From a virus: a stretch of DNA of 64,000 nt. The notes beneath the pieces were generated by a model that was not told the DNA's origin, made no database searches, and saw only the letters and a list, made by a program, of their open reading frames with translations. The stretch lies in the IMG/VR virus record IMGVR_UViG_3300002307_000003; one strand, given 5' to 3'. Position numbers and translations under genes: made by a program. Numbering within the stretch: position 1 is the first letter of the stretch; each line of letters begins with the position of its first letter. Positions 11,027 through 58,105 of this stretch are shown in pieces.

Positions 11027-11223
11027 TGGCTTCCGATCTTTTAAATAAGATGCTAGAAAAAGGCGGTTTTTCCAATGCCGAAAACATTGAGAAGAAGCGC
11101 CAAGAACTAGCAGCAGCAGTCACCCGAGTCGTTATTAACGAAGCTATGGCTGAGATGAGGGCTCGCAAAGCCGAAATTGAACGCATGTCAGTTAAGACCG
11201 ATGATGGGGCGAAAAAAGACTAG
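11026..11223 (+). CDS. hypothetical protein
   Basis: 65-aa ORF with a TAATG junction onto the upstream gene. Confidence 0.5.
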   Translation: MASDLLNKMLEKGGFSNAENIEKKRQELAAAVTRVVINEAMAEMRARKAEIERMSVKTDDGAKKD

Positions 11224-11237
11224 TTTGTGCATTAGTA
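11207..11237 (+). promoter_or_regulatory. bipartite phage promoter-like element GGGCG-N16-TGCATTAGTA
   Basis: GGGCG 11207-11211, exactly 16 nt, then TGCATTAGTA 11228-11237. Lies 15 nt upstream of ATG 11253. Confidence 0.6.
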
Positions 11238-11252
11238 GGAATAGGACACCCA

Positions 11253-11423
11253 ATGTCAACTCTTAGCCCTTGTAAAGGCATTTGTCGATTAGACAAAGAG
11301 TATTGCGTTGGGTGTAAACGCCATGTTGACGAAATCGTTGAGTGGTATAACCTTTCCGAAAAACAAAAGCAAGCAGTCGTTGAAAGAATCAAAAATGGCA
11401 CAGCCCACAAATCAAAAATTTAA
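11253..11423 (+). CDS. DUF1289-like Cys-rich small protein (56 aa)
   Basis: Below the ORF-track cutoff. MSTLSPCKGICRLDKEYCVGCKRHVDEIVEW matches the C-x3-C...C-x2-C DUF1289 pattern. AGGA upstream. Confidence 0.6.
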   Translation: MSTLSPCKGICRLDKEYCVGCKRHVDEIVEWYNLSEKQKQAVVERIKNGTAHKSKI

Positions 11424-11784
11424 GTTTACTGAAGACCACGCCAAGATCATTCTTGAAATGGGTAAGCATGGAGCATCTCAAAAATCGATGTATTCCGCAA
11501 TTGGTATCAGTAAAACTACTGCTCTTAAACTTAAAAAAGAAGATCCTGATTTTGCAGAAGCTATGGACTTAGCAACAACTTATGGCCAAGCATTTTGGGA
11601 AACAATGATGTTGGCAAATATCGAAAACAAAGCATTTAATTCCCGTGTTGCAGAGATTGCATTACGTGGACAATACCCCGATGATTACAAAGATACAAGA
11701 GAACAAAAGATCGACCTCAAAGCCGAGGTAGTCGTTGACTTTAATAAAGAAATAGCTAATCTAATTTCCGCCTTAAAGCAATAA
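11395..11784 (+). CDS. terminase small subunit-like HTH protein
   Basis: ATG 11395 is preferred over 11308. An HTH (SQKSMYSAIGISKTTALKLKK) followed by EDPDFAEAMDLA resembles TerS-type N-termini. It lies about 47 kb from terL. Confidence 0.45.
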   Translation: MAQPTNQKFKFTEDHAKIILEMGKHGASQKSMYSAIGISKTTALKLKKEDPDFAEAMDLATTYGQAFWETMMLANIENKAFNSRVAEIALRGQYPDDYKDTREQKIDLKAEVVVDFNKEIANLISALKQ

Positions 11785-11810
11785 AAATATTTTCAATTTA
11801 GTTAAAAAAG

Positions 11811-11833
11811 ATCCCCCGAAAGGGGTATTTTTT
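11811..11833 (+). terminator. weak intrinsic terminator
   Basis: CCCC-GAAA-GGGG hairpin followed by TATTTTTTT. Confidence 0.45.
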
Positions 11834-11843
11834 TGCATTAGTA
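11834..11843 (+). promoter_or_regulatory. TGCATTAGT motif copy (no GGGCG partner)
   Basis: TTTGCATTAGTATAG is identical over 15 nt to the copy at 10226-10240. Lies 32 nt upstream of ATG 11876. Confidence 0.45.
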
Positions 11844-11875
11844 TAGGTAACACTATAACGAATTGAAAGACTAAA

Positions 11876-13012
11876 ATGACTGCACACGCTTTTCTATCAG
11901 CCTCTGGATCAAAACGATGGCTATCATGTACTCCTTCCGCAAGACTCGAAAGTACACTCCCAGATTCACCAAGAAGTACAACCGGATTTGATTATTCAGC
12001 AGAAGGCACAACTGCCCATACGCTATCTGAAATCAAACTGCGTCTCCAGTATGGACAAATTAGTAGTGAGGAATATAAAAGAGAGCTTGAGATTATCAAA
12101 CTCACTCAATACTATAATGAAGATATGGAAATGTATACTGACAACTATGTCGTATATGTACGATCACAGATAGGTGCTAACGATGAGCCTTTGTTTGAAC
12201 AAAAGGTAGACTTTTCAGATTGGGTGAACGACGGATTTGGAACAGCAGACGTTGTAGTATTATCAGAAAATTCAATTCATGTCATGGATTTAAAATATGG
12301 TGTTGGTGTGCCTGTATCAGCCATAGACAATTCTCAACTTAGACTTTACGCTTTAGGCGCATGGAGTAAATTTAAAGTCAAGTATCCAAATATTAAAGAA
12401 GTTAAATACACAATTATCCAACCTCGATTGGACAGCATTACAACAGATAGCACAACACTCAACAAGCTTGTTGACTGGGCAGAGTATTTTGTTAAACCTA
12501 AAGCCACAAAAGCTTGGACGGGATCAGGCAACTATGTGCCAGGAGATCATTGCCAATGGTGTAAAGCCAAAGCTTTATGTCGCGCTCGATCTGATTACAA
12601 TAATGAGCTTGCTAAATTAGATTTTAAAGAACCCCCTTTGCTATCAGAAGATGAGCTTAATACTGTGCTTACTAAAGCGCAAGATTTAAAAACATGGGTA
12701 AATGATGTAGAGGCTCACGCACTTGATCGAGCTATCAATGAGCATAAGATCCCTATTGGTTTTAAATTAGCAACGACAACAACACATCGCAAGATCACCG
12801 ATACTGAACTTGCTGCCAAAGTGCTTCTTGAAAAAGGACTTTCTGATAGTGTTATTTATGAACCAGTTAAACTAAAATCGATCGCAACATTAGAGAAGTT
12901 AGCTGCCAAAGGTCAAGTAGTTACTTGGTTAGGTGAATTAGTACAACGCCCCGAGGGATCACCTAAATTGGTCCGCGATACATCGGCTAATGCAGCAGAA
13001 GATTTTAAATGA
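11876..13012 (+). CDS. PD-(D/E)XK (Cas4/DUF2800-like) exonuclease
   Basis: N-terminal SASGSKRWLSCTPS, catalytic-like MDLKYG, and C-terminal Cys cluster HCQWCKAKALC. Confidence 0.8.
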   Translation: MTAHAFLSASGSKRWLSCTPSARLESTLPDSPRSTTGFDYSAEGTTAHTLSEIKLRLQYGQISSEEYKRELEIIKLTQYYNEDMEMYTDNYVVYVRSQIGANDEPLFEQKVDFSDWVNDGFGTADVVVLSENSIHVMDLKYGVGVPVSAIDNSQLRLYALGAWSKFKVKYPNIKEVKYTIIQPRLDSITTDSTTLNKLVDWAEYFVKPKATKAWTGSGNYVPGDHCQWCKAKALCRARSDYNNELAKLDFKEPPLLSEDELNTVLTKAQDLKTWVNDVEAHALDRAINEHKIPIGFKLATTTTHRKITDTELAAKVLLEKGLSDSVIYEPVKLKSIATLEKLAAKGQVVTWLGELVQRPEGSPKLVRDTSANAAEDFK

Positions 13013-13269
13013 TGCTTGTTAAATGTTATGAAAAGGTATACAGTGTTCCAGATAGCTTGATTAGTAAATACACCAAAGAATTTGAGGTATTGCCAGGAAG
13101 CGGGCTTCGTGATGAAATCAATTTGCTCCGCGATTCAGTCTATCAGATTCTTTTACTTATATCGGTAGATCCTGATATGCTATCAGAAGAAGATTATAAA
13201 AAAGATTTTATCAATGCCCTTGCAATTAAAAAGGCTATGGAGAATAATAAAATCTTGCATGATGATTAA
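13009..13269 (+). CDS. hypothetical protein
   Basis: 86-aa ORF with an ATGA overlap. Confidence 0.5.
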   Translation: MMLVKCYEKVYSVPDSLISKYTKEFEVLPGSGLRDEINLLRDSVYQILLLISVDPDMLSEEDYKKDFINALAIKKAMENNKILHDD

Positions 13270-13348
13270 AAGTAGTATAAGATGTTTTTTATGGGTAGAC
13301 GAACTGGCCCCAATTGAAGTCTGGTTCTTACGTTAAGGAGTAATAGAT

Positions 13349-13867
13349 ATGGCAACAACTAATAAAATTAAAATCGTAACAGGTAAAGTACGTTTTTCAT
13401 ATGCACATGTATTTCAACCAAGTGCAGCTGTTGAAGGCGGAACACCTAAGTATTCAGTATCAATCATCATTCCAAAGAGTGATACAGAAACTGTTGCTAA
13501 GTTTCAAAAAGCATTCGAAGATGCAGCGAATACAAACGCAGCGTTCTTTGGTGGTGCTGTTCCAAAAGGTTTAAAAGGTGGTTTACGTGATGGTGATGCA
13601 GAGAAAGATGATCCAGCATATGCTAACTCATTCTTTGTCAATGCTAACTCAGCTAATAAACCTGGTGTTGTTGATGCAGATATGAATGCGATCATTGATC
13701 CTTCAGAATTCTATAGCGGTTGCTATGGTCGTGCATCAGTCACACTATATCCATACAATGCTTCGGGATCTAAAGGCGTTGCAGTTGGATTAAACAATGT
13801 TCAAAAGACAGAAGACGGCGATAAATTAGGTGGCGGTACATCTGCTGCTGTAGATTTCGCAGTTTAA
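13349..13867 (+). CDS. DUF2815-like phage ssDNA-binding protein
   Basis: KVRFSYAHVFQP...KYSVSIIIPK...LRDGD...YSGCYGRASV pattern. AAGGAG RBS. Confidence 0.75.
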   Translation: MATTNKIKIVTGKVRFSYAHVFQPSAAVEGGTPKYSVSIIIPKSDTETVAKFQKAFEDAANTNAAFFGGAVPKGLKGGLRDGDAEKDDPAYANSFFVNANSANKPGVVDADMNAIIDPSEFYSGCYGRASVTLYPYNASGSKGVAVGLNNVQKTEDGDKLGGGTSAAVDFAV

Positions 13868-13870
13868 ATA

Positions 13871-14299
13871 ATGAAGAAAATCCTAGTCATGGGTCTTCCG
13901 AGCGCGGGCAAAACAACAATGGCTCGCGCTTTGATGAAGCAATTAAAACAACATAACAAAACTGTTAATTGGTTTAATGCTGATCGAGTACGTGAAGACT
14001 TTAATGACTGGGACTTTTCCGATAAAGGAAGATTAAGACAAGCTGCTAGAATGTTTTATTTAGCGCGAGATTCAAAAACAGACTATGTAATTTGTGATTT
14101 TGTATGTCCAACAAAATTAGCTTATGCACTATTCGAACCACAACATATTATATGGATGGACACCATTAATCAAAGTAAGTACGAAGATACAAATCAAATT
14201 TTTACACCACCCACCCAGTATGATTTTAGAGTGACTGAAAAAGACGCTGTAAAATATGCTGAGGATATTGCTAGAAAGATTATAAATGGATCAATATAG
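13871..14299 (+). CDS. P-loop kinase (adenylylsulfate kinase-like)
   Basis: GLPSAGKTT Walker A, then NADRVRED and DKGRLRQAARM, resembling APS-kinase motifs. Confidence 0.55.
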   Translation: MKKILVMGLPSAGKTTMARALMKQLKQHNKTVNWFNADRVREDFNDWDFSDKGRLRQAARMFYLARDSKTDYVICDFVCPTKLAYALFEPQHIIWMDTINQSKYEDTNQIFTPPTQYDFRVTEKDAVKYAEDIARKIINGSI

Positions 14300-16160
14300 A
14301 GAATACATTGCCGCAAGTCGATACGCTAGATTTATAGATGAAAAAGCACGTCGAGAAACATGGGGCGAAACAACCCAAAGATTTGTAGATTATATTTTTA
14401 GTCATACAGAATTAATTAAAGACAATGAAGCATTAAAGAAAGAAATCTTTGACGCTATTTTTAACCATCAATTAATGCCTTCCATGCGTGCCATGATGAC
14501 GGCAGGAAAGAGTGCCGATCGTGACAATACATGCGTTTATAACTGTTCTTACTTACCCGTGGACGATCCTAAATCATTTGATGAAGCCATGTTTATCTTG
14601 CTATGCGGAACAGGAGTTGGTTTCTCAGTCGAAGCAAACAATATTAACAAGTTGCCCGAAGTGCCGGACACTTTATATGAATCCAATCACACGATCGCAG
14701 TCCATGACTCAAAAGAAGGTTGGGCAAAATCATTAAGATTAATACTGGCTCATCTATGGGCTGGTGAAGTTCCACAATGGGACGTAAGTAAAATACGCCC
14801 GGCGGGTGCTCGATTAAAAACATTTGGTGGTAGGGCGTCTGGCCCACAACCGCTGATTGATTTATTTCAATTTGTAGTAGCCGTATTTAAAAATGCTAGA
14901 GGACGTAAATTAAACTCCCTCGAATGTCATGATATTATGTGTAAAATCGGTGAAGTTGTTGTAGTTGGTGGCGTACGTCGTTCAGCTATGATTTCACTAT
15001 CAGACCTAGATGATGAAAGGATTAGACATGCAAAAGCGGGACCTTGGTGGGATACAGCACCGCACCGTGCGTTGGCGAATAATTCCGCAGTGTACGACGA
15101 GACGCCTACAGTTGGCAAATTCATGGAGGAATGGCTCTCCCTCTACAATTCGCACTCGGGTGAACGAGGCATTTTCAATCGCGAGGCAGCTAAGAAAACG
15201 GTTTCCAAATTCGGGCACCGCGATCCAAATTTCGAGTTCGGTACTAACCCGTGCTCCGAGATCATTCTTCGTCCGTATCAATTTTGTAACCTCACGGAAG
15301 CTGTTGTACGTCACGACGATACCAAAGAGACTCTTATATACAAAGTCAAATTGGCTACCATTTTGGGTACAATTCAATCGACGTTCACAAAGTTCCCTTA
15401 TTTAAGAAAAGTGTGGCAAAATAATACCGAAGCAGAACGCTTGCTTGGTGTGTCATTAACTGGTATATTTGACAATAAATTATTAACTACACAAGGGACA
15501 AAATTAAATGAAATTCTTAACGAACTCAGAGATGTGGCGAGAGCTACAAACAAAGAATGGGCAGAAAAACTTGGTATTGAACCAAGTACCGCAATCACTT
15601 GCGTCAAGCCAAGTGGAACAGTCTCTCAACTTGTTGACTCTGCGTCAGGAATCCATCCAAGACATTCTAAGTACTATATCAGAAGAGTACGAGGAGACAA
15701 AAAAGATCCACTTACAACCTTCCTTGTGGAACAGGGCATTCCTAGCGAAGACTGCGTATATAAACCGACGCAAACAACAGTCTTTAGTTTCCCTCAAAAA
15801 GCACCCGACGGATTAACAAGAGAAGATGTTACACCTATAGATCACTTAGAATTATGGTTGACCTATCAAAGAGAATGGTGTGAACATAAACCTTCTGTTA
15901 CCATATCGGTTGAAGAAAAAGATTGGCCAAGTGTTGGAGCATGGGTATGGGATCACTTTGATGAGATTAGTGGAGTATCATTCCTACCATATGATGGTGG
16001 CACTTATCGCCAGGCGCCATACGAAGAGTGTACAGAAGAGCAGTACAATGAATTAAAAGCTAAAATACCTAACATTGATTGGACACATTTTAAAGAAGTG
16101 ACTGACAATGTTGAGGGAGCCCAAATGCTTGCATGCGTGGCAGGTGTTTGTGATATCTAA
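14286..16160 (+). CDS. nrdJ: class II (adenosylcobalamin-dependent) ribonucleotide reductase
   Basis: 624 aa. Active-site TNPCSEI. C-terminal redox pair CVAGVCDI. No separate small subunit. Confidence 0.8.
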   Translation: MDQYREYIAASRYARFIDEKARRETWGETTQRFVDYIFSHTELIKDNEALKKEIFDAIFNHQLMPSMRAMMTAGKSADRDNTCVYNCSYLPVDDPKSFDEAMFILLCGTGVGFSVEANNINKLPEVPDTLYESNHTIAVHDSKEGWAKSLRLILAHLWAGEVPQWDVSKIRPAGARLKTFGGRASGPQPLIDLFQFVVAVFKNARGRKLNSLECHDIMCKIGEVVVVGGVRRSAMISLSDLDDERIRHAKAGPWWDTAPHRALANNSAVYDETPTVGKFMEEWLSLYNSHSGERGIFNREAAKKTVSKFGHRDPNFEFGTNPCSEIILRPYQFCNLTEAVVRHDDTKETLIYKVKLATILGTIQSTFTKFPYLRKVWQNNTEAERLLGVSLTGIFDNKLLTTQGTKLNEILNELRDVARATNKEWAEKLGIEPSTAITCVKPSGTVSQLVDSASGIHPRHSKYYIRRVRGDKKDPLTTFLVEQGIPSEDCVYKPTQTTVFSFPQKAPDGLTREDVTPIDHLELWLTYQREWCEHKPSVTISVEEKDWPSVGAWVWDHFDEISGVSFLPYDGGTYRQAPYEECTEEQYNELKAKIPNIDWTHFKEVTDNVEGAQMLACVAGVCDI

Positions 16161-16181
16161 TTTCACGTGGTGGTGAAGTAG

Positions 16182-16210
16182 GGGGCTCTGTAGTTTGGAG
16201 CCTCTTTTTA
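16182..16210 (+). terminator. possible intrinsic terminator after the RNR gene
   Basis: GGGGCTC / GAGCCTC stem with a 9-nt loop, followed by TTTTTA. Confidence 0.4.
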
Positions 16211-16226
16211 TTTGGAGAAAACACAA

Positions 16227-16430
16227 ATGATTAAAAAAGCAAAATTAAAAGTGTTAAGTGTAAAAGAAAAAGGTGATACATGGTATATCACAGTAGACAC
16301 TAATGAAGAAGGTCGTAGAATACTTATGCAAGCTGGTATAAACCAAGCACTAAATAACATGGTAAGTGATAATTATAAAATATTATCATGGTGGCAACGA
16401 TTTAAATACGCATGGAAACACGCTAAATAA
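16227..16430 (+). CDS. hypothetical protein
   Basis: ATG 16227 with GGAG upstream, preferred over TTG 16212. Confidence 0.5.
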   Translation: MIKKAKLKVLSVKEKGDTWYITVDTNEEGRRILMQAGINQALNNMVSDNYKILSWWQRFKYAWKHAK

Positions 16431-16447
16431 ATTATTTACGGAATAGT

Positions 16448-16594
16448 ATGATAGTATATCGAATGAAACATTTGAACGGACATATTATGTTTAATCGTCC
16501 AATTAAAATGAGGGTATCTGATAAAGATAGTAGAAGATATGCTAGAATAGAACGTAAACTTAAACGAAATTCACGATATTGGTTAGGAGATTAA
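16448..16594 (+). CDS. possible small basic protein (48 aa)
   Basis: Fills the gap between neighbouring genes. Below the track cutoff, with no strong SD. Confidence 0.3.
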   Translation: MIVYRMKHLNGHIMFNRPIKMRVSDKDSRRYARIERKLKRNSRYWLGD

Positions 16595-16595
16595 A

Positions 16596-16817
16596 ATGGC
16601 AAGTGAAGCAGGCAAGGGAGATAAACGTAGACCTACAGATATGGAGTTATTTGAAACTAATTTTGAACGTATCTTTGGAAAGCCTAAAAAATCTCGTATG
16701 GATACCATTGGACAAAATGGTAATGAAGGGTTACACTATGATTCTGATGATGCAGTTGACCGATGGTCAGCCGTATTGCGAGATGAATATGATTCTAAAT
16801 ATTGGAAAGACCAATGA
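16596..16817 (+). CDS. conserved small phage protein
   Basis: AGGAGA RBS. The GKGDKRRP...NFERIFG pattern recurs in many phages, from memory. Preferred over the overlapping ORF 16579-16824. Confidence 0.6.
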   Translation: MASEAGKGDKRRPTDMELFETNFERIFGKPKKSRMDTIGQNGNEGLHYDSDDAVDRWSAVLRDEYDSKYWKDQ

Positions 16818-18724
16818 TCTATAGTATCGACTTTGAAACGAGATCTTTTGCAGATTTAAAAGATCGAGGGCTAGATATTTATGCAAATTGCTTATCTACA
16901 GAAGTTATTTGTATCGCCTTCGGTACATCAGAAGACAACGTAATTGTCAATGAGCCAACACACGCCGCGATACAACCGCTTTTAACCCATGTTGCTAATG
17001 GGGGTAAAATTGCAGCTTGGAATGCGCTCTTTGAATATGCCATATGGAATTGTGTTTGTGTTCCAAAATATGGATGGCCTGCCCTAAAACTAGAACAGTG
17101 TATCGATACTATGGGTATCGCTGCAGCTAACAATATCCCACAAAGCTTAGATGAAGCCGGTCAATTCTTAGATGCAGAATTTAAGAAAGACCCTATTGGT
17201 AAAAGGCTTATTCAGAAACTATGCAAACCCCACAAAGATGGCTTCAATAAAGACCCCGAATTAATAAATCAGTTATTTGAGTACTGTAAACAAGACGTTA
17301 AAACAGAGATAGCCATAGGACGCATTTTAAGGCCCCTAGACGCGTCTGAACAAAAGATATGGGAGTTGACTCAAAGAATTAATATTAGAGGTGTTCCCGT
17401 CGATCCTATTGAGTTAGATTTTGCAGTAACAGCCGTTGATAATGCTCAAGAAGCTATTAATCAAGAAACATTAACTTTAACTGGATGCAAACCATCAGAA
17501 CGTGCCAAACTATTAAAATGGCTTAATGATCAAGGTGCTAATTTAGAAGATTTAACTGCTGAGACTGTTGAGGCAAAGTTAAACGAAGAGCATTTAACGC
17601 CGAACGTTAAACGTGCATTAGAATTGCGACAAGAAGGAAGCCAAACTAGCGTGGCTAAGTACGCTAAAATGTTGGAGATACAAAACAATGGAAGAATTAG
17701 AAACACGTTGGTCTATCATGGGGCGAGTACTGGCCGTTGGGCTTCGAGGGGTGGACTTAATTTGCAAAATATTGCACGCCCTACATTGGAGGATAACGCT
17801 ATTACAGACGCGATTACACGAGTCTTTAGCACAGGAGTTGGCACGATGTCCGAACTCTCCTCCCTTGTACGATCTGCAATTCGTGCTCCACAAGGGCAGA
17901 CCTTCGTGGATGTCGATTTTAGCTCGATCGAAAACAGAGTGGCGTCTTGGATCGCTAACCAAAATGATAAAGTAGAGCTATTTAGAAAAGGGTTAGATGA
18001 ATACAAGGTATTTGCATCAACTTCTTTGTATCGAGTACCTTATGAAGAGGTGACTAAAGAACAACGCCAAGTCTCTAAATCAGCCGTTTTGGGTTGTATG
18101 TTTGGACAAGGTGCTAAAGGTTTGGTTGAGTATGCTAAAGGTATGGGCGTTAAATTGACAGAAGGCCAATCAAAGAATGCCGTAGATAATTATCGCGCAT
18201 CGTATCCAAAGGTTAAAGCATTATGGTATGCGTGCGAAGATGCTGCTATTCAAGCAGTACAAACGCCTGGTGTTGCATTTAAGGCTAATGATAGAGTGGT
18301 GATGAAGTTTGATAAGGGGGCTTTATGGATGCGTTTACCGAGTGGTAGATTGATATGTTGGCAAAGACCAATGTTGGAATCAGTTATGACGCCTTGGGGT
18401 GCTGAGAAGCTTGCTGTTACAGTGCATGGACTTAATACATTTACCCGTAAGTGGACGCGGAACGTTCTTATTGGAAGTTCCATATTTCAAAGTGCCGTCC
18501 AAGGAACCGCTAGGGATTTCCTTGCCATGGCTATGCTCAGTCTTGAAGATAAAGGATATAGTGTGTGTAACAGTATCCATGATGAAGTCCTATTGTTAGT
18601 TGATGAATCTAAACAAGATGTTGCACTAGATGAAGTCATTAAGATCATGACAACTACACCAAAATGGGCGCCCGATTTTCCTCTCGCTGCCGAAGGGTGG
18701 GTAGGAACTCGCTATCGCAAGTAA
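16814..18724 (+). CDS. family A DNA polymerase with 3'-5' exonuclease
   Basis: Exo I IDFETRS, Exo III YCKQDV, motif A DVDFSSIENRV, motif B RQVSKSAVLGCMFGQG, motif C SIHDEV. ATG 16814 is preferred over TTG 16802. Confidence 0.9.
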   Translation: MIYSIDFETRSFADLKDRGLDIYANCLSTEVICIAFGTSEDNVIVNEPTHAAIQPLLTHVANGGKIAAWNALFEYAIWNCVCVPKYGWPALKLEQCIDTMGIAAANNIPQSLDEAGQFLDAEFKKDPIGKRLIQKLCKPHKDGFNKDPELINQLFEYCKQDVKTEIAIGRILRPLDASEQKIWELTQRINIRGVPVDPIELDFAVTAVDNAQEAINQETLTLTGCKPSERAKLLKWLNDQGANLEDLTAETVEAKLNEEHLTPNVKRALELRQEGSQTSVAKYAKMLEIQNNGRIRNTLVYHGASTGRWASRGGLNLQNIARPTLEDNAITDAITRVFSTGVGTMSELSSLVRSAIRAPQGQTFVDVDFSSIENRVASWIANQNDKVELFRKGLDEYKVFASTSLYRVPYEEVTKEQRQVSKSAVLGCMFGQGAKGLVEYAKGMGVKLTEGQSKNAVDNYRASYPKVKALWYACEDAAIQAVQTPGVAFKANDRVVMKFDKGALWMRLPSGRLICWQRPMLESVMTPWGAEKLAVTVHGLNTFTRKWTRNVLIGSSIFQSAVQGTARDFLAMAMLSLEDKGYSVCNSIHDEVLLLVDESKQDVALDEVIKIMTTTPKWAPDFPLAAEGWVGTRYRK

Positions 18725-18725
18725 T

Positions 18726-19127
18726 CTAGCACTTCCAACGTTTTAATGATGCGGCTTTACGCGTTGGGTTTCCGTGTTCATCTTTCATAGGGCCAGGCAT
18801 GCCTGACATTCTTGCACAAAATGATTTTTTACGAGATCCACCTTCTGGTTGTGGGGCTTTTAAATGACTGCCTGTTTCTCTATTATACTTCTCACGACCC
18901 TTGGCAGTTAAGCCTGCACCTTTAGATACAGGTAGCTTTTCGCCACGACCTACAGCTAGTGATGGACCACCTTTTTTCATTGGCTTTGCAGTCTTTGCTG
19001 ACTCTTTAAAAGCCTCTGCAGTAGGTGCACCTTTTGATCCAGGTTTGCGCATTTTCTCTCCACTACCTTCTGCTATACGTTTTTGTTTAGCGTGGATGTT
19101 TGAATATAGTCCAGGTTTTGTTGCCAT
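18726..19127 (-). CDS. conserved basic phage protein
   Basis: 133 aa. GLYSNIHAKQKR N-terminus and KKSFCARMSG...LKRWKC C-terminus. Last gene of the minus-strand block. Confidence 0.6.
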   Translation of the reverse strand: MATKPGLYSNIHAKQKRIAEGSGEKMRKPGSKGAPTAEAFKESAKTAKPMKKGGPSLAVGRGEKLPVSKGAGLTAKGREKYNRETGSHLKAPQPEGGSRKKSFCARMSGMPGPMKDEHGNPTRKAASLKRWKC

Positions 19128-25193: not shown

Positions 25194-25652
25194 TTACTCC
25201 AATACGATCGAATATATTTTTTCAAAATAACCAGCACCAAGTCTTTCCAGTAATTTACCATAATCATTAGATGGTTTTACTGACATTAAGATCCGTTGTG
25301 GTTTCCGTTCTTTAATCTTATCTATAGACCACTTAATAAATGTAAAAGCATTCAATCCTTTTCTATATTCAGGAAGAATGTATATTAACGTGGATGTTGC
25401 GGTAACGCTTTGTTTATAGTGTATATGTCTACCTAAAATCCACATACTGTAACCTACAAGATTACCATCATCTCTGATAGTATGAACCTCAGCTCTATTT
25501 AAAGCTTCTAGTTTAAAATATTGCTTATAATTAGGATTTAATGGGATCTTATCTAAATGCTCTGAGGATTCTTCGGCATGTTTTTTAAATAAGTTTTGTA
25601 CGTCTTTATCAGATGCAAAGACGGCTCCCGGTTCTTTTTGGTAGGTTATCAT
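25194..25652 (-). CDS. GNAT-like acetyltransferase
   Basis: 152 aa. YILPEYRKGLNAFTFIKW loosely fits GNAT motif A. Has its own promoter-like element. Confidence 0.4.
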   Translation of the reverse strand: MITYQKEPGAVFASDKDVQNLFKKHAEESSEHLDKIPLNPNYKQYFKLEALNRAEVHTIRDDGNLVGYSMWILGRHIHYKQSVTATSTLIYILPEYRKGLNAFTFIKWSIDKIKERKPQRILMSVKPSNDYGKLLERLGAGYFEKIYSIVLE

Positions 25653-25659
25653 CTAGGTA

Positions 25660-25690
25660 TACTAATGCAAATTTAGCTTAGTTTACGCCC
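25660..25690 (-). promoter_or_regulatory. bipartite promoter-like element GGGCG-N16-TGCATTAGTA
   Basis: Plus strand shows TACTAATGCA 25660-25669, 16 nt, then CGCCC 25686-25690. The motif ends 7 nt before ATG 25652. Confidence 0.6.
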
Positions 25691-32342: not shown

Positions 32343-32395
32343 TATGTATCCTCGAGGTTAAATTTGATTGAAATGGGATGATCAGTCCTTATGTG

Positions 32396-32426
32396 TACTA
32401 ATGCATAAATATCAGGCTTTTCGCCC
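32396..32426 (-). promoter_or_regulatory. bipartite promoter-like element GGGCG-N16-TGCATTAGTA
   Basis: TACTAATGCA 32396-32405, 16 nt, then CGCCC 32422-32426. Overlaps the 3' end of the lysozyme gene. Confidence 0.6.
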
Positions 32427-44110: not shown

Positions 44111-47100
44111 TTATAATACCAACCATCGTGATCCAGATGGTATTGTTACTGATTGTCCTGTTGCTACAGTGATAGGTCCTACAGCTATTGCATTGCTACC
44201 GGTAGGTATTACATAACTTGCCGATACAGTCTTACTATGCACAATCATTCCGTTTGATGCTACTACGTTAGGTGCTGTTAATGCGCCTGTAGAAGGATTG
44301 GCAGTAAAGTTAGTATTCACATAATCAACACTAGTTGATCCGCTAGATGCTGACTGGAATCCTAAATTATAGTTCGTGTTACTTGAGGTGGATGTAATTG
44401 TCAAACCACCTGTTGCTGCAGCCCAAGTTGCTGTTGTACCATTGGATGTTAATACATAAGTATTTGTACCAATAGCTAAACGTGTAGCACTATTAGTTCC
44501 GTTACCTATAATTAAATCACCCGCTGTGGTAATTGGACTTAATGCGTTAAATGCTGCACTTGCAGTTGTTTGTCCTGTACCACCATTTGTAATAGCTAAA
44601 GTACCTGCTAATGTAATTGCACCTGTGGTTGCACTACTTGGTGTTAATCCTGTTGTACCTGCACTAAAACTTGTGACACCGCCCGTTGATGCTGCCCATG
44701 TTGGCACACCAGAAGCTAATGTTAACACATAACCATTGGTGCCTGCAGTTAATTTACTTAAAGTATTTGCGGCCGATGCATATATTAAATCACCCGTAGC
44801 ATAAGTACTAAATCCTGTGCCGCCACTTGTTGCACCTAATGTGCCAGCTAATGTAACTGCACCTGTAGTTGCTGTATTTGGTGTCAATCCACTTAAACTT
44901 GTTTGGAATGATGTTACACCACCAGTAGATGCTTGCCACGATGCTGTCGTTCCATTCGAGGTTAAAACATATCCGTTTGTACCTATAGCTAATCTTGTTG
45001 CGCTATTAACACCATTACCAAGAATCAAATCGCCAGTTGAGGTAATTGGTGATAATGCATTAAATGCTGCACTTGCTGTCGTTTGTCCTGTACCACCATT
45101 ACCAATGGCTACCGTACCTGTAACATTTGCTGCATTTCCACTAATATTACCACTAACTTGGGATCCTGGCAAACTTAACGCACTTAATGTAGTGAGTGTT
45201 GAGTTACTTGTTGCAGTAATATTTGCTGCAGTACCTGTTGTATTCTGATTAAACGTAGGCCATGTAAATGTACCTGTACTAAAGTTACCACTTTGTGGTG
45301 TTCCAAGTATGGGTGTTGTAAAACTTGGACTTGTTGCTAATGCTACAACTGTACCAGAACCTGTTGTGGTATATGATGTTCCCCACGCAGTGCCTGTTGA
45401 ATTTGGTATTCCTGCACCTGGATAAACCATGGTGCTTGTTGCATTAATTGTTATTGCTGCCGAACCATTATATGTAGTGCCAGAACTAAATGTTATGTTT
45501 GTTCCTGCTGTGAGCGCATTGGCTACACTACCTGCTGATCCCGTTGTATTCTGATTAAACGTAGGCCATGTAAATGTACCTGTACTAAAGTTACCACTTG
45601 TAGGTGTACCTAAAACAGGTGTTACTAACGATGGAGAAGTATTAAGTACATTGCTGCCTGATCCAGTAGAGGTTGTAACTCCCGTACCACCAGAAAGAAC
45701 AGGAAGGGTGCCAGTAGTAAGAACAGAAGTTGATGACGCATAAACTGCTCCGTTTAAAGTAAATGATGATAAATTAGTACCACCGTTTGCTGTAGGTAAT
45801 ACGCCCGTCACGCCGGTTGTTAATGGTAGTCCTGTTGCACTAGTCAGTACAATAGCTGTTGGTGTGCCTAAAGCAGGAGTTACTAATGTAGGACTTGTTG
45901 CAAATACTAATGCACCAGAACCTGTTTCATCTGTTACGGCTGCTGCTAAATTAGCTGAACTTGGAGTTGCTAACCATGTTGCTACATTTGTACCTAATCC
46001 AGTAATAGATCCTACTGCGGGAGTTACTGTTGTATTGCCTGCTAAAGTCAATTGACCTTGAGCATTGACTGTAAATGTGCCTACTTGAGTAGCTGATCCA
46101 TAAGCATTTGCAGTGACTGCAGTGTTTGCAATACTAAATTGAGTGCCAGTAAGTGATAATCCTGTGCCTGCTGTATATGCTCCAGGGCCTGCAATTTGGG
46201 TAAATGATAATGCTGTTGTGCCAATTGTAATTGGGAAGTCTGTTGTTTGTACCCACTGCGTACTTGCATTCACTGTACCACTAATAATAAACATGGTATC
46301 ACCAGGAGCAACTTCATTTTGACCAGAGCCTACTTGATCATAGTCAGTGGCTCTTGTTAAAACCCAACCTACTATTAATGATCCTACACTTGTAACAGTG
46401 TACACACCATTATATTGTCCACTTGTTTCATTTTTAACTAAAATTCTTTGTCCGACTGTTGGACTTCCACCATCAATTGCAAGTGTTGCAAATGGTGTTG
46501 TTTTAGTTAATGTAGCTCCAACACCTGATGTTCCATTGCTATAAGTAACTGCGCCTAAATCTGCTGTAGTAGCATAATTACAAGCCGCATGGTAATTAAC
46601 ATTGGATACTGCCGCATCTACATATTGTTTTGTTGCTGCATCTAAGGCATTGGTCGGATTTTGTGTTAATGTAACAGTAGTTAATCCACCTAAAGTAAGT
46701 GATGTTCCACCTAAACTAATAGGTGTTGTTCCTATAGTTAACGAACTATTTGTTAGTGCACTATTAGGTATATTTGTTAATGTATTAGTCGATCCACTGA
46801 TTGACTTATTTGTTAATGTTTGACTACCTGTTAATGTGGCAACAGTTGAATCAATCGCAATTGTAACTGCTGCAGCACCTGTATAACTTGTACCACTTAA
46901 TCCTGTGCCTATCGTTAAAGCATTTGGATTAGCTGCTGTAATGGTGCCACTGCTACCTAAAGCAACAGCAACACCATTATAGGTAACTGAACTATTTGTT
47001 AAAGAGCTATTAGCAATATTAGTGAGCGTGTTATTCGCTCCACTAATTGTTTTATTTGTTAATGTTTGAGTGCCTGTTAGTGTTGCAACTGTTGAATCAA

Positions 47101-50161: not shown

Positions 50162-50257
50162 GTTAGTTTTCCTTAATCTTAGTGATTATCCCAAACTGTC
50201 TCTAAGTCGTCTATCGGGAAGTGTCGATAGTCAGAGTGAGATGATTCTTCCTATGCC

Positions 50258-50288
50258 TACTAATGCATAAATTTTAAGTCTTTCGCCC
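50258..50288 (-). promoter_or_regulatory. bipartite promoter-like element GGGCG-N16-TGCATTAGTA
   Basis: TACTAATGCA 50258-50267, 16 nt, then CGCCC 50284-50288. Sits directly after the capsid-gene terminator. Confidence 0.6.
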
Positions 50289-51264: not shown

Positions 51265-51285
51265 CTAAGAGTTCCTTTCGTTACG

Positions 51286-51948
51286 TTACACTGACACTGA
51301 AGCGGCAGCGAACTGGTTATTAGAAATTTGTACTTGAACGATAGTGTAAGCATCACCCCATTGATTTGTGTTACCTGCTGGGTATGCTACTTCACGACCT
51401 AATCCAACTACACGCACTTGTCCTTGAGCACCTGTACCAACTGCTGTTGCAAGCAACGCAGTAGTAGAGAAACCAGCGCCACCATTACCGATAGCAACGC
51501 CATCAGCTACTGTGTAGTTAGTTGTTGTGTCAAAGTTATATTCTGTACCGATTGCTGCTGTTGTAGCTGAGCCGTTAACTTGCGCTTCATATACTAATGC
51601 AGGATCAGAAAAAATCCAAAATACAATGTTTGTTGAAGCATCAAGAGTTAATTTTGATGCATATTTTGCTACTGAACGACGACCGTCAGAGTTTGTATAC
51701 TCTACGCCATCGAACACGCCATATACCTTACCGCTTGCAGCAGTTTGGTTAGCGATTGTTAATTGACCTGTTGAAGTGATCGCTACAGGTTGGTATTGCC
51801 AGAAAGACTGGCCGGAACTCAAACTGTAAGGAGCTGTGTATGTCACACCTTGGACAAATGTGTTAGTACCTACGAATGGTACAGCACGATCTAATCCACT
51901 TGGGTGATACGCTGGCTTCAGGCCAAAGGGTTGAAATGTTGCTGACAT
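51286..51948 (-). CDS. head-associated structural protein
   Basis: 220-aa ORF immediately upstream of the capsid gene. Confidence 0.5.
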   Translation of the reverse strand: MSATFQPFGLKPAYHPSGLDRAVPFVGTNTFVQGVTYTAPYSLSSGQSFWQYQPVAITSTGQLTIANQTAASGKVYGVFDGVEYTNSDGRRSVAKYASKLTLDASTNIVFWIFSDPALVYEAQVNGSATTAAIGTEYNFDTTTNYTVADGVAIGNGGAGFSTTALLATAVGTGAQGQVRVVGLGREVAYPAGNTNQWGDAYTIVQVQISNNQFAAASVSV

Positions 51949-51978
51949 AATGTCTTTTTCCTTTGTGATTGAAGATTG

Positions 51979-52536
51979 TTATTGAAATCTAATATTTTTA
52001 TTATTAGCTTTTGCAGTATCTTTTTCCATTTCTAATAATCCGCCTTCAAGAATAGAGCGTCCGCCTTTACGATCTTCTGAAGTATTACGTACTTGCGCAG
52101 TAATATTACGTTGATGTTCAAGAGGGTCTTCTAAGTGAAGCATTCTCATAACTTCTTGATATACGTCTTCTGGTAATTTAAAAAGTACCATTTCATTACA
52201 ACTAATACAGCCTTCAAACTTGCCTGAGCTCATTTTGCCTAGTCCTTCAAAGCCTAATCCTAATTCCCCGGCTTTAACTGGCTCATAACCCAACGCCATA
52301 CGTTTGTCGATACTGTCATATGTGTTTGTTGTTGACAACCAACACAAGTGCATGCCAGGAATAGAATTCGCTGGAATGTCAGGCAGTGCGCTATTTGCCC
52401 ATTTATCTCTGAACGCATCAAGGCGTTCGCGATGCGCGATGTCATCGGGATTAGCTACATTAGCTCTATCCATAACTTCTTTTGCTCGATCGGTCATACG
52501 ATCGTCTAAATCTCTTTTAATTCTTGTATTAGCCAT
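51979..52536 (-). CDS. head-module hypothetical protein
   Basis: 185-aa ORF. Confidence 0.5.
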   Translation of the reverse strand: MANTRIKRDLDDRMTDRAKEVMDRANVANPDDIAHRERLDAFRDKWANSALPDIPANSIPGMHLCWLSTTNTYDSIDKRMALGYEPVKAGELGLGFEGLGKMSSGKFEGCISCNEMVLFKLPEDVYQEVMRMLHLEDPLEHQRNITAQVRNTSEDRKGGRSILEGGLLEMEKDTAKANNKNIRFQ

Positions 52537-52541
52537 GATAA

Positions 52542-53561
52542 TTATCCTTTATTAGCGCGATCATACGAAGCGTATGCGCGGATCATTTTATTTCGTTTAT
52601 CTACATCGTCCCATGCACCTGCATCTTTAATTGCCTGAACTCTATCACGACTTAACGTAATGGTATTTGGCTTTGCAGTTGAAGTATTTGCTACCCTACT
52701 TGATGCTGTAGGTCCAGCCGATCTTCTATTATTCATGTTATTCCCTTTCGCTGTGTAGCGATGGGGCAAACGAGCAGATAATCGGTTGTCTAGTTCGTCC
52801 CAATATTCAGGATCTGCGGGATCCCAACCGTCGGCGACTAACTCTTGATCTATTACCTTGGCAATTCTACTATCTGTATCTCTAGCATCTGTATCATACC
52901 AAGAATTACGCTTTAACCACTGAGTTGCGTTTCTTTGTACCTCAGCTGTTAATGTTGTGGGTACATTTTCTCTTGGTCTCTTTGCTGCTTCGAGTTGTTG
53001 TTTTTTAAAATGTTGCATTTGTTGTAACCGTTGTTTTGCATCGGTTAACTGTTCCAAATACTCTATTTGACCGGCTGCATCATTAGATTGTGCAGCTTGT
53101 AACATTTTCATTTTTGCATATTCAACTTTTGTGGCTTCATCTTCGAGTGTTTTATCGAGTTGAGCCATTTTAAATGAAGATGCAGTACTCTCTAATTTAG
53201 CTAATCTGTTAGCTAATTCTTCATTTCGTCGTTCAAGAGCACTAATTTTGTGTTTTGATGAAGCTTCACGTTGTTTTTGTAGTTCTTTTTTAAGTCTACG
53301 TTCTTCTCGGCGCGCTTCACGAATTTTTTCTCGTTCTTCATCAGATTCTTCATTAGTTTGGTCATCATCTTGATGATCTTCTGATTCGGAGTCTGTATTT
53401 TCTTCTGTTTCAGTAGGTTCAGCCGGTTCTTCAACCTTGCCACCTTCTTTTAGTTCTGGTGTTTCATCATCTGCGAAGGCATCTTCGAGATTTTCCACTT
53501 TGGCTAGAACTGAGCCGTCTTCTTGTTCCTTAATAGGAACATCTTTTTCTTTATCTGCCAT
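52542..53561 (-). CDS. scaffolding-like protein
   Basis: Acidic N-terminus and long charged coiled-coil segments (EEREKIREARREERRLKKELQKQRE). Position in the head module. Confidence 0.55.
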   Translation of the reverse strand: MADKEKDVPIKEQEDGSVLAKVENLEDAFADDETPELKEGGKVEEPAEPTETEENTDSESEDHQDDDQTNEESDEEREKIREARREERRLKKELQKQREASSKHKISALERRNEELANRLAKLESTASSFKMAQLDKTLEDEATKVEYAKMKMLQAAQSNDAAGQIEYLEQLTDAKQRLQQMQHFKKQQLEAAKRPRENVPTTLTAEVQRNATQWLKRNSWYDTDARDTDSRIAKVIDQELVADGWDPADPEYWDELDNRLSARLPHRYTAKGNNMNNRRSAGPTASSRVANTSTAKPNTITLSRDRVQAIKDAGAWDDVDKRNKMIRAYASYDRANKG

Positions 53562-53583
53562 TTTCTACTTTCTTCAAAGTTAA

Positions 53584-54027
53584 TTAATCAACAAACGCTT
53601 TCATTTTCTGCGCAAATTCATAAGACTTAATGCGAGAAATGATTTCACGAGCCTGTAATGTAATAAACACTACTGGAGCACCTTCATCACCTGCGTCAAC
53701 TACAAAGCGATCGCCACCATATTTGATAGTTCTCACTAAGTCGCCTTCTTTACACCATGCGCCCTCAGGCCATGATTCAAGTGTGAAAGGATCTTTGTAT
53801 GCTAAAGGGCCTATTTGCACCACTTTTGCTACAGTCTCATTAAATTTAATAGTTTGTCTTGTTTCGTCTACCAATAAAATTCCACCCTTGCTTAATGTCT
53901 TTTCTCGTCTTAATTGAACGAGTACTCGATCACCCGCAACTTCAATACCTGGGTCAATTACTGGAAAACAATCTAATTCGGAACGCATATCTGGATCCGC
54001 GTTTCCTACAACGTCAAATGCTGCCAT
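53584..54027 (-). CDS. GroES/Cpn10-like co-chaperonin
   Basis: GDRVLVQLRREKTLSKGGILLV...VAKVVQIG...KEGDLVRTIKYGG parallels the GroES pattern DRVIVKR..ETKSAGGIVL...VLAVG...VGDIV. Confidence 0.55.
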   Translation of the reverse strand: MAAFDVVGNADPDMRSELDCFPVIDPGIEVAGDRVLVQLRREKTLSKGGILLVDETRQTIKFNETVAKVVQIGPLAYKDPFTLESWPEGAWCKEGDLVRTIKYGGDRFVVDAGDEGAPVVFITLQAREIISRIKSYEFAQKMKAFVD

Positions 54028-54054
54028 TCGGCAATCCTCCTTAAACTTTACAGT

Positions 54055-54249
54055 TTAGTTGTTATGATCTTCGTCATCTTCGGACATGATATCGTTAAGC
54101 AGATTTAATGCTGCTTGTAAACCTTGATGAGTACCAACAAGACGTTGATAGCTTTCAATGTTGATGGCATGTCCTGCGGTTAACGATTCCGCAATTTTCG
54201 TTTGCTCAGTCTTTATCTGACCGATTAATTCCGTAATGATATCTTTCAT
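54055..54249 (-). CDS. hypothetical small acidic protein
   Basis: 64-aa ORF. Its ATG starts 6 nt after the promoter-like motif, with no SD. Confidence 0.5.
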   Translation of the reverse strand: MKDIITELIGQIKTEQTKIAESLTAGHAINIESYQRLVGTHQGLQAALNLLNDIMSEDDEDHNN

Positions 54250-54254
54250 GCGAT

Positions 54255-54285
54255 TACTAATGCATCAATTTAGGCAAATCCGCCC
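54255..54285 (-). promoter_or_regulatory. bipartite promoter-like element GGGCG-N16-TGCATTAGTA
   Basis: TACTAATGCA 54255-54264, 16 nt, then CGCCC 54281-54285. Confidence 0.6.
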
Positions 54286-54289
54286 TAAA

Positions 54290-54508
54290 TTAATAAAAGT
54301 TGCCGCCTTCAAGTTCGTTAAGATTTTTGCCTGGACCAATTGGTTTAGCATTTTTTACTTTAGCTTGTTTAGCGCCAATTTTCCAATTATCATCTCGATG
54401 TGAACCGGAAGCGCCTTGTTCTACTTTTTGATCTGGACCGCCAGCGTAACCTGGTGTGCCTGTCATTTTATAAGCTTTACGAAAGCCTAATTCTTTTTCT
54501 AATGCCAT
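54290..54508 (-). CDS. hypothetical small protein
   Basis: 72-aa ORF downstream of the portal gene. Confidence 0.5.
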   Translation of the reverse strand: MALEKELGFRKAYKMTGTPGYAGGPDQKVEQGASGSHRDDNWKIGAKQAKVKNAKPIGPGKNLNELEGGNFY

Positions 54509-54510
54509 GA

Positions 54511-57417: not shown

Positions 57418-57746
57418 TATTTAACAATTCCTGAATTTTTTAAAAAGTCGACAATGATAGGATGTAATTCTGGAGTAGTAGGTTGATTAACAGAACTACC
57501 CTCTGCATAATTAAATTGTTGTGGTGGAACTTGTTTGTTTATAATCATGGCAGCTTTCATTTGAGCTGGTGATAAATTTTGTTCAGCTTTTTTCAAATTT
57601 TTATTACCGCCTTTAGCAAATTTAGGCATAAGACCTGATTCTTGAAATAGCATTTGTTTAGGCGTGTTTAACATGCCTGGTGTAGGTAATGGAGAAGCGC
57701 CTGCTTCTTCTAACATTTTTTGATGGGGTGTTTTAAGTAAGTTCAT
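57417..57746 (-). CDS. hypothetical protein
   Basis: 109-aa ORF containing KFAKGG and NYAEGS motifs. Confidence 0.5.
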   Translation of the reverse strand: MNLLKTPHQKMLEEAGASPLPTPGMLNTPKQMLFQESGLMPKFAKGGNKNLKKAEQNLSPAQMKAAMIINKQVPPQQFNYAEGSSVNQPTTPELHPIIVDFLKNSGIVK

Positions 57747-58048
57747 GTTGTGGGTTCTATTAAAAAGACATTTGCTGGTAATATAGTTTTATCGCCTTTG
57801 AGCCATTGAATTACAATATTGTCGCCTTCATTATTATAGCACCCAAGTAAAACTGCGCCATCAATTCTTTTTGCGATATTAGCGTAAGGATATAATACTC
57901 TTAATTCAGGAAAAGGGCAATCTGAATTAGAAATAGTAATAGTCACATTATCATTAAATTTATATTTTAAAAATTTAAAATGATCCTCGGCGTATGATGT
58001 GGTCAATAAGCCTAGGATTAATATAAAACTTATTGACAGTTTATTCAT
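57743..58048 (-). CDS. secreted small protein
   Basis: ATG 58048 with GGAGG RBS. Signal-like MNKLSISFILILGLLTTSYA. The longer track start would include the promoter element. Confidence 0.55.
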   Translation of the reverse strand: MNKLSISFILILGLLTTSYAEDHFKFLKYKFNDNVTITISNSDCPFPELRVLYPYANIAKRIDGAVLLGCYNNEGDNIVIQWLKGDKTILPANVFLIEPTT

Positions 58049-58074
58049 TGCGCCTCCTAGTTGGTGCCTAATCA

Positions 58075-58105
58075 TACTAATGCATAGATTTTTCAATACC
58101 CGCCC
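58075..58105 (-). promoter_or_regulatory. bipartite promoter-like element GGGCG-N16-TGCATTAGTA
   Basis: TACTAATGCA 58075-58084, 16 nt, then CGCCC 58101-58105, overlapping the terL stop codon by 1 nt. Confidence 0.6.

Follow-up and report, generated by a model that had tools for sequence, protein, structure and literature searches.

A probable phage-specific sigma70-family promoter class and its proposed readers in an uncultured virus genome

Genes of the window and copies of the motif

The 64,000-nucleotide stretch of DNA analysed here (IMG/VR record IMGVR_UViG_3300002307_000003; the window) comes from a phage genome in which a short motif, TGCATTAGTA, recurs on the coding strand, mostly just 5' of genes. 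We interpret this motif as the core of a phage-specific promoter of the sigma70 family that would serve the replication (middle) and structural (late) genes, an explanation to which, taken as a whole, we give a probability of about 70%. A promoter role for the sites is, from their sequence features, very likely, and their recognition by a truncated sigma factor encoded by the phage itself (1580–2161) is likely.

According to the map of open reading frames (ORFs), the window is divided into arms, with plus-strand genes at 1–18724 and 61037–64000 and minus-strand genes at 18726–60539. The plus arm encodes the sigma factor, a primase/D5 helicase, two 2-oxoglutarate (2OG)-Fe oxygenases, an SNF2 helicase, a DUF2800 nuclease, a DUF2815 single-stranded DNA (ssDNA)-binding protein, a class II ribonucleotide reductase and a family A DNA polymerase (best identity 36%). 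On the minus arm are the genes for the terminase and portal, those of the capsid region and tail-fibre-like genes. No tRNA gene is present in the region. The copies of the motif and the two proteins considered as its readers are as follows, with offsets counted from the T of the TGC in the motif.

1580–2161, plus strand: phage sigma factor, 193 amino acids, regions 1.2 to 3.2 and no region 4; proposed reader of the TGCATTAGTA core
2813–2851, plus strand: candidate promoter copy without GGGCG, TGCATTAGTT; predicted start at about 2849, primase ATG at 2853, near-leaderless
4913–4922, plus strand: intragenic copy in the primase gene, without GGGCG, T-run or TA at offsets 14–15; conserved along with the protein
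10208–10246, plus strand: candidate promoter copy without GGGCG, in the last helicase codons; ATG 10243 of the sigma4-like gene at offset 14
10243–10566, plus strand: candidate GGGCG reader, 107 amino acids, with an acidic N-terminal tail and a C-terminal helix-turn-helix that is likely of the sigma-region-4/LuxR type
11207–11245, plus strand: candidate promoter copy with GGGCG at −21, before a 56-residue Cys-rich ORF (ATG 11253) and a 128-residue ORF
11813–11851, plus strand: candidate promoter copy without GGGCG, abutting a terminator-like hairpin (11811–11826) and T run; DUF2800 exonuclease ATG at 11876
25652–25690, minus strand: candidate promoter copy with GGGCG; ATG 25652 at offset 17, predicted leader of 2 nt
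32388–32426, minus strand: candidate promoter copy with GGGCG, 63 nt 5' of ATG 32342
35867–35905, minus strand: candidate promoter copy with a partial upstream element (GGACT), in the 3' end of gene 35834–36292 and 64 nt before ATG 35820
45905–45914, minus strand: intragenic copy in a gene for 1340 amino acids, without flanking features
50250–50288, minus strand: candidate promoter copy with GGGCG, 106 nt 5' of ATG 50161
51592–51601, minus strand: intragenic copy in gene 51286–51948, without flanking features
54247–54285, minus strand: candidate promoter copy with GGGCG; ATG 54249 of a 64-residue gene at offset 15, predicted leaderless
58067–58105, minus strand: candidate promoter copy with GGGCG, directly 3' of the terminase stop; ATG 58048 with an AGGAGG ribosome-binding site
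60716–60754, minus strand: candidate promoter copy without GGGCG, TGCATTAGTT, second of a tandem pair; followed by a 5' hairpin and a 23-residue pqqA ORF
60774–60812, minus strand: candidate promoter copy without GGGCG, first of the tandem pair heading the minus (structural) arm

An exhaustive search of both strands of the whole window for exact copies of TGCATTAGT returned 15, compared with 1.18 ± 1.10 (largest value 5) in dinucleotide-preserving shuffles, and the bipartite form GGGCG-N16-TGCATTAGT was found six times and in none of the shuffles. An earlier reading of the letters alone (the sequence-only reading) had listed at least 15 copies, at coordinates that agree with those found here, and six with the GGGCG-N16 arrangement; both counts are thereby confirmed. 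Its further observation that the motif always lies on the transcribed strand also holds: 15 of the 15 copies are on the coding strand of the local arm, no exact copy in the window is antisense, and the orientation of the motif switches at ∼18.7 and ∼60.8 kb, as the gene arms do. Variants of TGCATTAGT with one or two mismatches are mildly enriched and of mixed orientation, so the functional set is essentially that of the exact copies.

Twelve of the 15 copies are gene-proximal, lying 14–111 nt 5' of a same-strand start codon and often directly after the stop codon or terminator of the upstream gene, and three (4913, 45906 and 51593) lie deep within genes and lack the flanking features. A weight matrix made from relatives only (positions −23 to +17) was scored against the window; its best 11 matches are 11 gene-proximal copies, all co-oriented, with the copy at 2834 in thirteenth place (score 11.3). 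The scan of the window gave no antisense site above the range of the shuffles, and the intragenic copies score within noise (4.8 for 4913, below 2.3 for 45906 and 5.3 for 51593), compatible with chance and Ala-Leu-Val codon usage. The copy at 4913 is probably a coding coincidence and those at 45905 and 51592 are probably due to chance. Codon coincidence had been suggested for four intragenic copies; this explanation is kept for these three and dropped for the fourth, at 10229, a copy that relatives also have and whose end lies 4 nt 5' of the ATG at 10243.

The copy at 2813–2851 overlaps a perfect host-type promoter, TTGACA-N18-TATAAT (2791–2820), which is one of three host-type matches arranged in tandem 5' of the copy at 2834 (2617–2853), the others being GTGACA-N16-TAAAAT (2636) and GTAACA-N17-TATAAT (2701). 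In view of this cluster, the primase gene may be served by both host and phage holoenzymes. Clear host-type promoters are located in the early region, most prominently this one, and the number of host-type matches in the late arm is at chance level (63 versus 58 ± 6). Behind the copy at 11207, the 128-residue ORF shows a faint, sub-threshold helix-turn-helix (NCBIfam E-value 0.058), and the longer frame 11308–11784 matches Pfam HTH_26 with an E-value of 0.0027.

Conservation, geometry and predicted start of the sites

Relatives were collected from IMG/VR using the terminase (80 loci, 86–99% protein identity) and the sigma factor (ten loci, 69–95%) as queries. The motif is found at syntenic sites in 63 of the 90 loci, for example ∼25 nt after the terminase stop, whereas the flanks and the genes that follow have diverged, often to the point that the DNA 3' of the motif cannot be aligned. 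A pattern scan added at least 119 IMG/VR stretches in which the bipartite form occurs, and about 200 related IMG/VR contigs carry the motif. Two contigs from metagenome-assembled genomes keep the motif signals with helicase and nuclease proteins that are only 54–72% identical and sigma4-like proteins that are 61–65% identical to those of the window; one of these contigs was binned with Lishizhenia and the other with a beta-proteobacterium.

The relatives provided 147 distinct contexts of the motif, the core being invariant by construction of the search. GGGCG is positioned exactly at −21 from the T of TGC in 87 of them and occurs elsewhere within the 50 nt upstream only at −46 and −20 (once each). 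Next to it on the 3' side is (G/A)AAA, 78% of the contexts have A at position 9, and positions −4 to −1 are T-rich; the ATTTA-like stretch remarked upon before TGC in the sequence-only reading is therefore real. A second set, which is biased in that its loci were selected for at least one GGGCG-N16 copy, contains GGGCG in 151 of 199 contexts, every one at −21, and TA at offsets 14–15 in 162 of 199. A crude test of orientation relative to local ORFs flagged 11 of the 147 contexts; one is clearly antisense and most of the others are artefacts of short downstream genes.

The presence of GGGCG depends on the site. In relatives that retain the motif there, GGGCG is always missing from the primase, sigma4-like and exonuclease sites and is present at the 11228 site and at most structural-arm sites. 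Among distinct structural-arm contexts, which were assigned to this arm by strand and are phylogenetically related, 80 have GGGCG, 11 have a four-of-five-base match and 20 have neither. The element was also considered as the 5' arm of a terminator hairpin, a pairing that is available to 48% of the sites compared with 33% with shuffled spacers; since pairing is impossible at half of the sites (in the window, at four of six), a hairpin arm was rejected as its main explanation.

A departure from the usual sequence was seen in the early region of L088, the relative with a 69% identical sigma factor, where three copies of ACCACAGGGCGGGG...CCCCGCCATGTTTAAACA (1303–1333, 1614–1644 and 2125–2155) keep the GGGCG-N16-TG frame with a different 10-mer and with hairpin potential; in 20 kb, this relative has only one TGCATTAGTA. 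These repeats could represent drift of the promoter along with divergence of the sigma factor or an unrelated terminator family. In L212, a distant relative, nothing beyond a loose variant of the ATTAGTA type was seen, too weak to be used.

Downstream of the TG, the bases T14, A15 and G17 are conserved with frequencies of 0.77, 0.81 and 0.67 in the 147 contexts, and when only the 100 contexts without an ATG at offset 15 are considered, 63 of them still have TA at offsets 14–15. Of the 139 non-intragenic contexts, 44 have the start of an ORF of 40 codons or more exactly at offset 15. At least four unrelated gene families are represented, namely the primase, the genes on either side of the terminase and the one that follows the portal; as their 5-nt spacers vary in sequence (agatt, gtatt, atcgc and caaac, among others), what is conserved is the distance. 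Start sites usually have a pyrimidine at −1 and a purine at +1; taken together with the conservation of T14–A15 and the spike of ATG codons, this preference places the predicted transcription start at A15. The CATA-GGA segment that the copies at 50258 and 32396 had been noted to share is part of the general T14-A15-n-G17 consensus; the TCATC noted with it is not generally conserved.

If +1 is at offset 15, TG occupies −15/−14, ATTAGT −12 to −7 and GGGCG −36 to −32. The hexamer GGGCGR then lies at a fixed distance of 18 bp upstream of ATTAGT, and the TG one base before the latter corresponds to that of an extended −10 element. At the primase site of L088 and a second relative, L089, the arrangement is TTGACA-N14-TGCATTAGTA, which gives the textbook 17-bp spacer to ATTAGT. 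The predicted offset-15 start, the 18-bp spacer and this TTGACA argue for a sigma70-family geometry of the extended −10 type. The sequence-only reading had excluded both sigma70 and sigma54 on spacing; the exclusion of sigma70 is not upheld, and that of sigma54 is. For the latter, TTGCA resembles a −12 element, but positions −10/−9 are C/T-rich and the GG expected 10 nt 5' of the GC is missing. The alternative hexamer TAGTAN, with A at −11 and T at −7, would leave a discriminator of only 4 nt up to offset 15 and a 19-bp spacer to TTGACA in L088 and is a less consistent possibility than ATTAGT.

With this start, the mRNAs beginning at the ATG codons 54249 (offset 15) and 10243 (offset 14) are predicted to be leaderless, and those of 25652 and 2853 would have leaders of 2–4 nt; elsewhere, copies precede leaders of the ordinary kind that contain ribosome-binding sites of the AGGAGG type (e.g. 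58048). At the 54249 site the spacing between motif and ATG is kept in relatives and the sequence of the 5-nt spacer is variable. Leaderless mRNAs are thus predicted to be frequent in this promoter class, with the ATG exactly at the predicted start at about one third of the sites.

Candidate reader proteins and neighbouring features

The ORF at 1580–2161 matches the sigma-factor family PHROG_351 (E-value 7e-27) and aligns with SigA structures (residues 96–265, E-value 5e-22). Its Pfam score is 31.8 bits for region 3 (cut-off 25.3) and 23.2 bits for region 2, just below the cut-off of 24, and partial matches were obtained with the NCBIfam models for RpoD, RpoS and SigB. The chain stops after EPISLEHLNEERFLEEQDD, where region 3.2 begins, and region 4 is absent. 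The same end point, after EP(I/V)SL, is found in the window and in ten of ten relatives (69–95% identity), which identifies the truncation as a conserved feature and not an assembly error. The segment that would read the −10 element is YARSFIEKGVR, compared with YATWWIRQAIT in SigA, and its substitutions (W to S, W to F, Q to K and T to R) fit a changed −10 specificity. Region 3.0, which reads TG, lies in sigma region 3, the part retained here (Pfam Sigma70_r3). The ORF directly after the sigma gene (2127–2414) has no Pfam match and only a faint match to an extracytoplasmic function (ECF) linker, with an E-value of 0.01.

The 107-residue protein encoded at 10243–10566 resembles the region that this sigma factor lacks. 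The C-terminal half, LDPKQQFIFEAYLDGLTYNDISVTEKYWRYHFGKGLEIIKKEL, has the pattern of sigma regions 4.1–4.2, and the N-terminal part, PRLSDEDPDPMERDD, is acidic and, by eye, similar to region 3.2. The AlphaFold2 model has a predicted local distance difference test score (pLDDT) above 90 over roughly residues 50–100, and its Foldseek list of PDB matches is dominated by sigma region 4 (SigL, SigD, SigW, SigK, SigR, SigC and sigmaE), with target-normalised TM-scores of 0.5–0.67 and root-mean-square deviations of 2.5–3.5 Å. The NCBIfam sigma70-ECF model matches the protein with an E-value of 0.021, weak Sigma70_r4_2 matches occur in 15 of 38 close homologues (best E-value 0.0068) and four of 21 distant ones, and three homologues have been named 'sigma24 family' by the Joint Genome Institute. 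A sigma4/LuxR-type fold is likely; whether the protein is also the reader of GGGCG is close to an even question, leaning slightly towards the negative.

Several neighbouring features were also noted. On the 3' side of the second tandem copy lies a hairpin, aagttgtagaatgattctacaactt (60733–60690), and beyond it on the minus strand a 23-residue ORF, MWTTPAATEMRFGFEVTMYVMNK (60680–60609), which is a PqqA precursor peptide (NCBIfam TIGR02107, E-value 5.6e-10, 38.8 bits, cut-off 20); this ORF, behind the tandem promoter pair and the 5' hairpin, is followed by two terminator-like hairpins. At the site of the window hairpin, relatives have a different hairpin-forming sequence, atgtgctcatatcgagtacat (L081, 3847 region), which suggests that a 5' stem-loop is conserved on the pqqA transcript. 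PqqA has been reported in predicted Methylophilaceae phages from Lake Baikal (PMC7678222). Together with the one related contig binned with a beta-proteobacterium, PqqA hints at a methylotrophic host. Between the divergent arms (60860–61100) there are at least six copies of GTGTGACAA / TTGTCACAC in both orientations, some of which overlap the −35-like GTGACA of host-type promoter matches; these copies look like operators or iterons.

In the replication arm, two 2OG-Fe(II) oxygenase genes and an acyl-carrier-like gene (PP-binding) are located at 5295–6768 (plus strand), and the Rfam DUF2815 RNA motif RF03084 (13292–13351, plus strand; 53.3 bits, gathering score 41.2) directly precedes the DUF2815/Enc34 ssDNA-binding gene at 13349–13867. 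On the minus strand, five paralogous genes at 36639–43456 match PHROG_2295, two of them also matching tail-fibre families, in a stretch with a G+C content of 0.43–0.46, compared with ∼0.38 elsewhere, and a strong negative GC skew. This stretch may be a cassette of alternative receptor-binding proteins.

Proposed mechanism, alternatives and known systems

In the proposed mechanism, the promoter would comprise a T-rich segment at −19 to −16, TG at −15/−14, ATTAGT at −12 to −7, A at −6, a variable 5-nt discriminator, a start at the A of T(−1)A(+1)G(+2)G(+3) and, optionally, GGGCG(R)AAA upstream at −36 to −28. Host core RNA polymerase carrying the phage sigma factor (regions 1.2, 2, 3.0 and 3.2) would read the core in the manner of an extended −10 promoter, and GGGCG may well be read by the separate sigma4-like helix-turn-helix protein 10243–10566. 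Host promoters would express the early genes, including that of the sigma factor, after which core-only promoters would express the replication genes and the sigma4-like protein, and finally GGGCG promoters the structural genes. The location of the sigma4-like gene behind a copy without GGGCG suggests such an ordered cascade. A more far-reaching version, which we put forward as a tentative possibility, is a truly split sigma factor: the 193-residue module would read the core and the 107-residue module, with its region 3.2-like acidic tail and DNA-reading region 4, would read GGGCG, and the arrival of the second module, made from a core-only promoter, would convert the holoenzyme from middle to late, as a feed-forward timer with systematic leaderless starts.

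The sequence-only reading had already suggested a phage-specific promoter that is plausibly read by the sigma factor at 1580–2161. This suggestion has gained support from the position and co-orientation of the copies, from their conservation next to diverged flanks, from the fixed upstream element and the start-site signature, and from a conserved sigma factor with altered −10-reading residues.

A number of results weigh against the interpretation or parts of it. ATTAGT has the T at −7 but also a T at −11, where sigma70 −10 elements have their most conserved base, A; it is therefore not a −10 element of a primary sigma factor, and the mode of reading by region 2 must differ. The counts from relatives come from phylogenetically related contexts that are not independent. 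About 2 kb of the phage genome (∼63–69 kb) lies outside the window, and megablast of the first 25 kb of the window against 50,697 phage records gave no nucleotide match. For the 107-residue protein, Sigma70_r4_2 is sub-threshold (E-value 0.044, 13.9 bits versus a cut-off of 25.7) and the Foldseek E-values are only 0.6–4. Profile searches of the PDB with two alignments of its family found no significant sigma factor, the one match being GerE with an E-value of 0.75, and hhalign of the family with the region 4 sequence of Escherichia coli sigma70 gave no significant match. An exhaustive profile search of 1.8 billion representatives found 34 short stand-alone relatives and none fused to a sigma factor, and tblastn of the protein against the 50,697 phage records found no match. 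Finally, two more distant relatives, L088 and L209, have no promoter copy directly 5' of the sigma4-like gene, which in L209 is further downstream of the GGGCG-less site; in L088 that site is absent. This arrangement limits a dedicated promoter of the sigma4-like gene to the closer clade.

The alternative that survives best, although we consider it unlikely, is that a host sigma holoenzyme (primary or alternative) uses the motif with the help of a phage activator bound to GGGCG or to the core, the phage sigma factor serving other sites. The sigma70-like geometry, the canonical TTGACA at the optimal 17-bp distance in L088/L089 and the location of the copy at 2834 within the cluster of host-type promoters would all suit such a holoenzyme. 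Primary sigma factors, however, need the A at −11 that the hexamer lacks, and the invariance of the 10-base core far exceeds the conservation of host −10 elements. The phage also has a conserved sigma factor of its own with changed −10-reading residues, for which the window showed no other repeated motif, as judged without systematic motif discovery.

A signal acting in the RNA, for instance a site of RNase processing or an element of the 5' untranslated region or of translation, would share the strand consistency and the position just 5' of start codons, and the fixed 5-nt distance to the ATG resembles the spacing of a ribosome-binding site. The second conserved block, however, lies 16 nt upstream across a non-conserved spacer, often in or directly after the stop codon of the upstream gene, and several copies come after terminators (11811–11826). 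The distance from motif to ATG varies from 14 to 111 nt, other genes use AGGAGG, and comparison by eye with the 3' end of E. coli 16S rRNA, which may not be that of the host, showed no anti-Shine–Dalgarno complementarity. We regard this explanation as improbable.

The flips in orientation that coincide with the gene arms (∼18.7 and ∼60.8 kb) would also be expected of an oriented DNA site without a transcriptional role, such as a Chi-like recombination signal or a site for a replication or packaging protein, with a polarity that follows replication, the direction of which would here be that of transcription. Sites of this kind scatter through coding DNA, whereas 12 of the 15 copies are gene-proximal here and the three intragenic ones are without flanks, and the quantised distance to the ATG and the start-site signature are likewise foreign to such a role, which also has a poor chance of being correct. 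The promoter of a single-subunit phage RNA polymerase (T7-, N4- or YonO-like) is the weakest candidate and very improbable, since, although conservation is contiguous from the core to +3 as in T7-type promoters, a fixed −36 element is foreign to them, no RNA-polymerase-like protein was seen among the ORFs scanned (all those of at least 600 residues included, several of them without a family match) and only ∼2 kb of the genome is unseen.

The sigma-dependent promoter model thus favoured is precise enough to predict start sites, operon boundaries and two promoter classes for a large uncultured clade, for which the sample names suggest freshwater. If the two-protein reading is true, domains 2–3 and a DNA-reading domain 4 are separate and separately timed genes, a natural split sigma factor intermediate between T4 gp55/gp33 and the cellular SigO-RsoA. 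The compact pair of promoter and sigma factor, with a defined leaderless start, is a possible orthogonal part. On a conservative reading, the system adds one more phage-sigma promoter consensus, which is useful and unsurprising.

Elements of the model have counterparts in several known systems. In SPO1 (gp28 and gp33/gp34) and phiEco32 (gp36), a phage sigma factor redirects the host core polymerase to a distinctive consensus of middle and late genes; these phages are cultured and their consensus sequences are unrelated to that described here. The cI mRNA that is transcribed from PRM of phage lambda is leaderless, starting at the A of the ATG without a Shine–Dalgarno sequence, whereas the leaderless start predicted here would be systematic for one promoter class (44 of 139 contexts, at least four gene families). 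E. coli sigma70 without region 4.2 can reportedly use extended −10 (TGn) promoters (Kumar et al., 1993). The sites of the window likewise have TG one base 5' of the hexamer, which makes function without a −35 contact plausible for the copies lacking GGGCG; unlike extended −10 promoters, they have an invariant 10-mer and a hexamer, ATTAGT, that differs from TATAAT at −12, −11 and −8.

The closest comparisons are with systems in which sigma functions are divided. The SigO and RsoA genes of Bacillus subtilis are co-transcribed. Sigma2 and sigma4 functions are distributed over these two cooperating polypeptides (PMC7826278, its refs 58 and 59). SigO-RsoA is cellular and of the ECF type, whereas the system proposed here belongs to a phage, its sigma half resembles group 1/2 factors and includes region 3, and the genes of the putative pair lie 8 kb apart behind different promoter types. 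Late transcription in T4 depends on gp55, a truncated sigma factor, and gp33, a sigma4 mimic on the beta flap, which have been called a 'split sigma' in a review; it involves neither an upstream promoter element nor reading of DNA by gp33 (PMC2988020). As in T4, a shortened phage sigma factor without region 4 would replace the host sigma factor at a −10-type core and, by analogy, a second small phage protein is a candidate stand-in for sigma domain 4. In contrast to T4, where gp55 is essentially region 2 only, the phage sigma factor keeps regions 1.2 to 3.2, and there is a fixed GGGCG element with a candidate partner that has a predicted DNA-binding helix-turn-helix. The ORFs scanned included no recognisable sliding-clamp gene, and a T4-like link to the clamp is not evident. 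The proposed system would work partly like T4 gp55/gp33 and partly like SigO-RsoA and is a member of neither; it is a known kind of system, a phage sigma factor with its promoter consensus, in an unusual and putatively two-part form.

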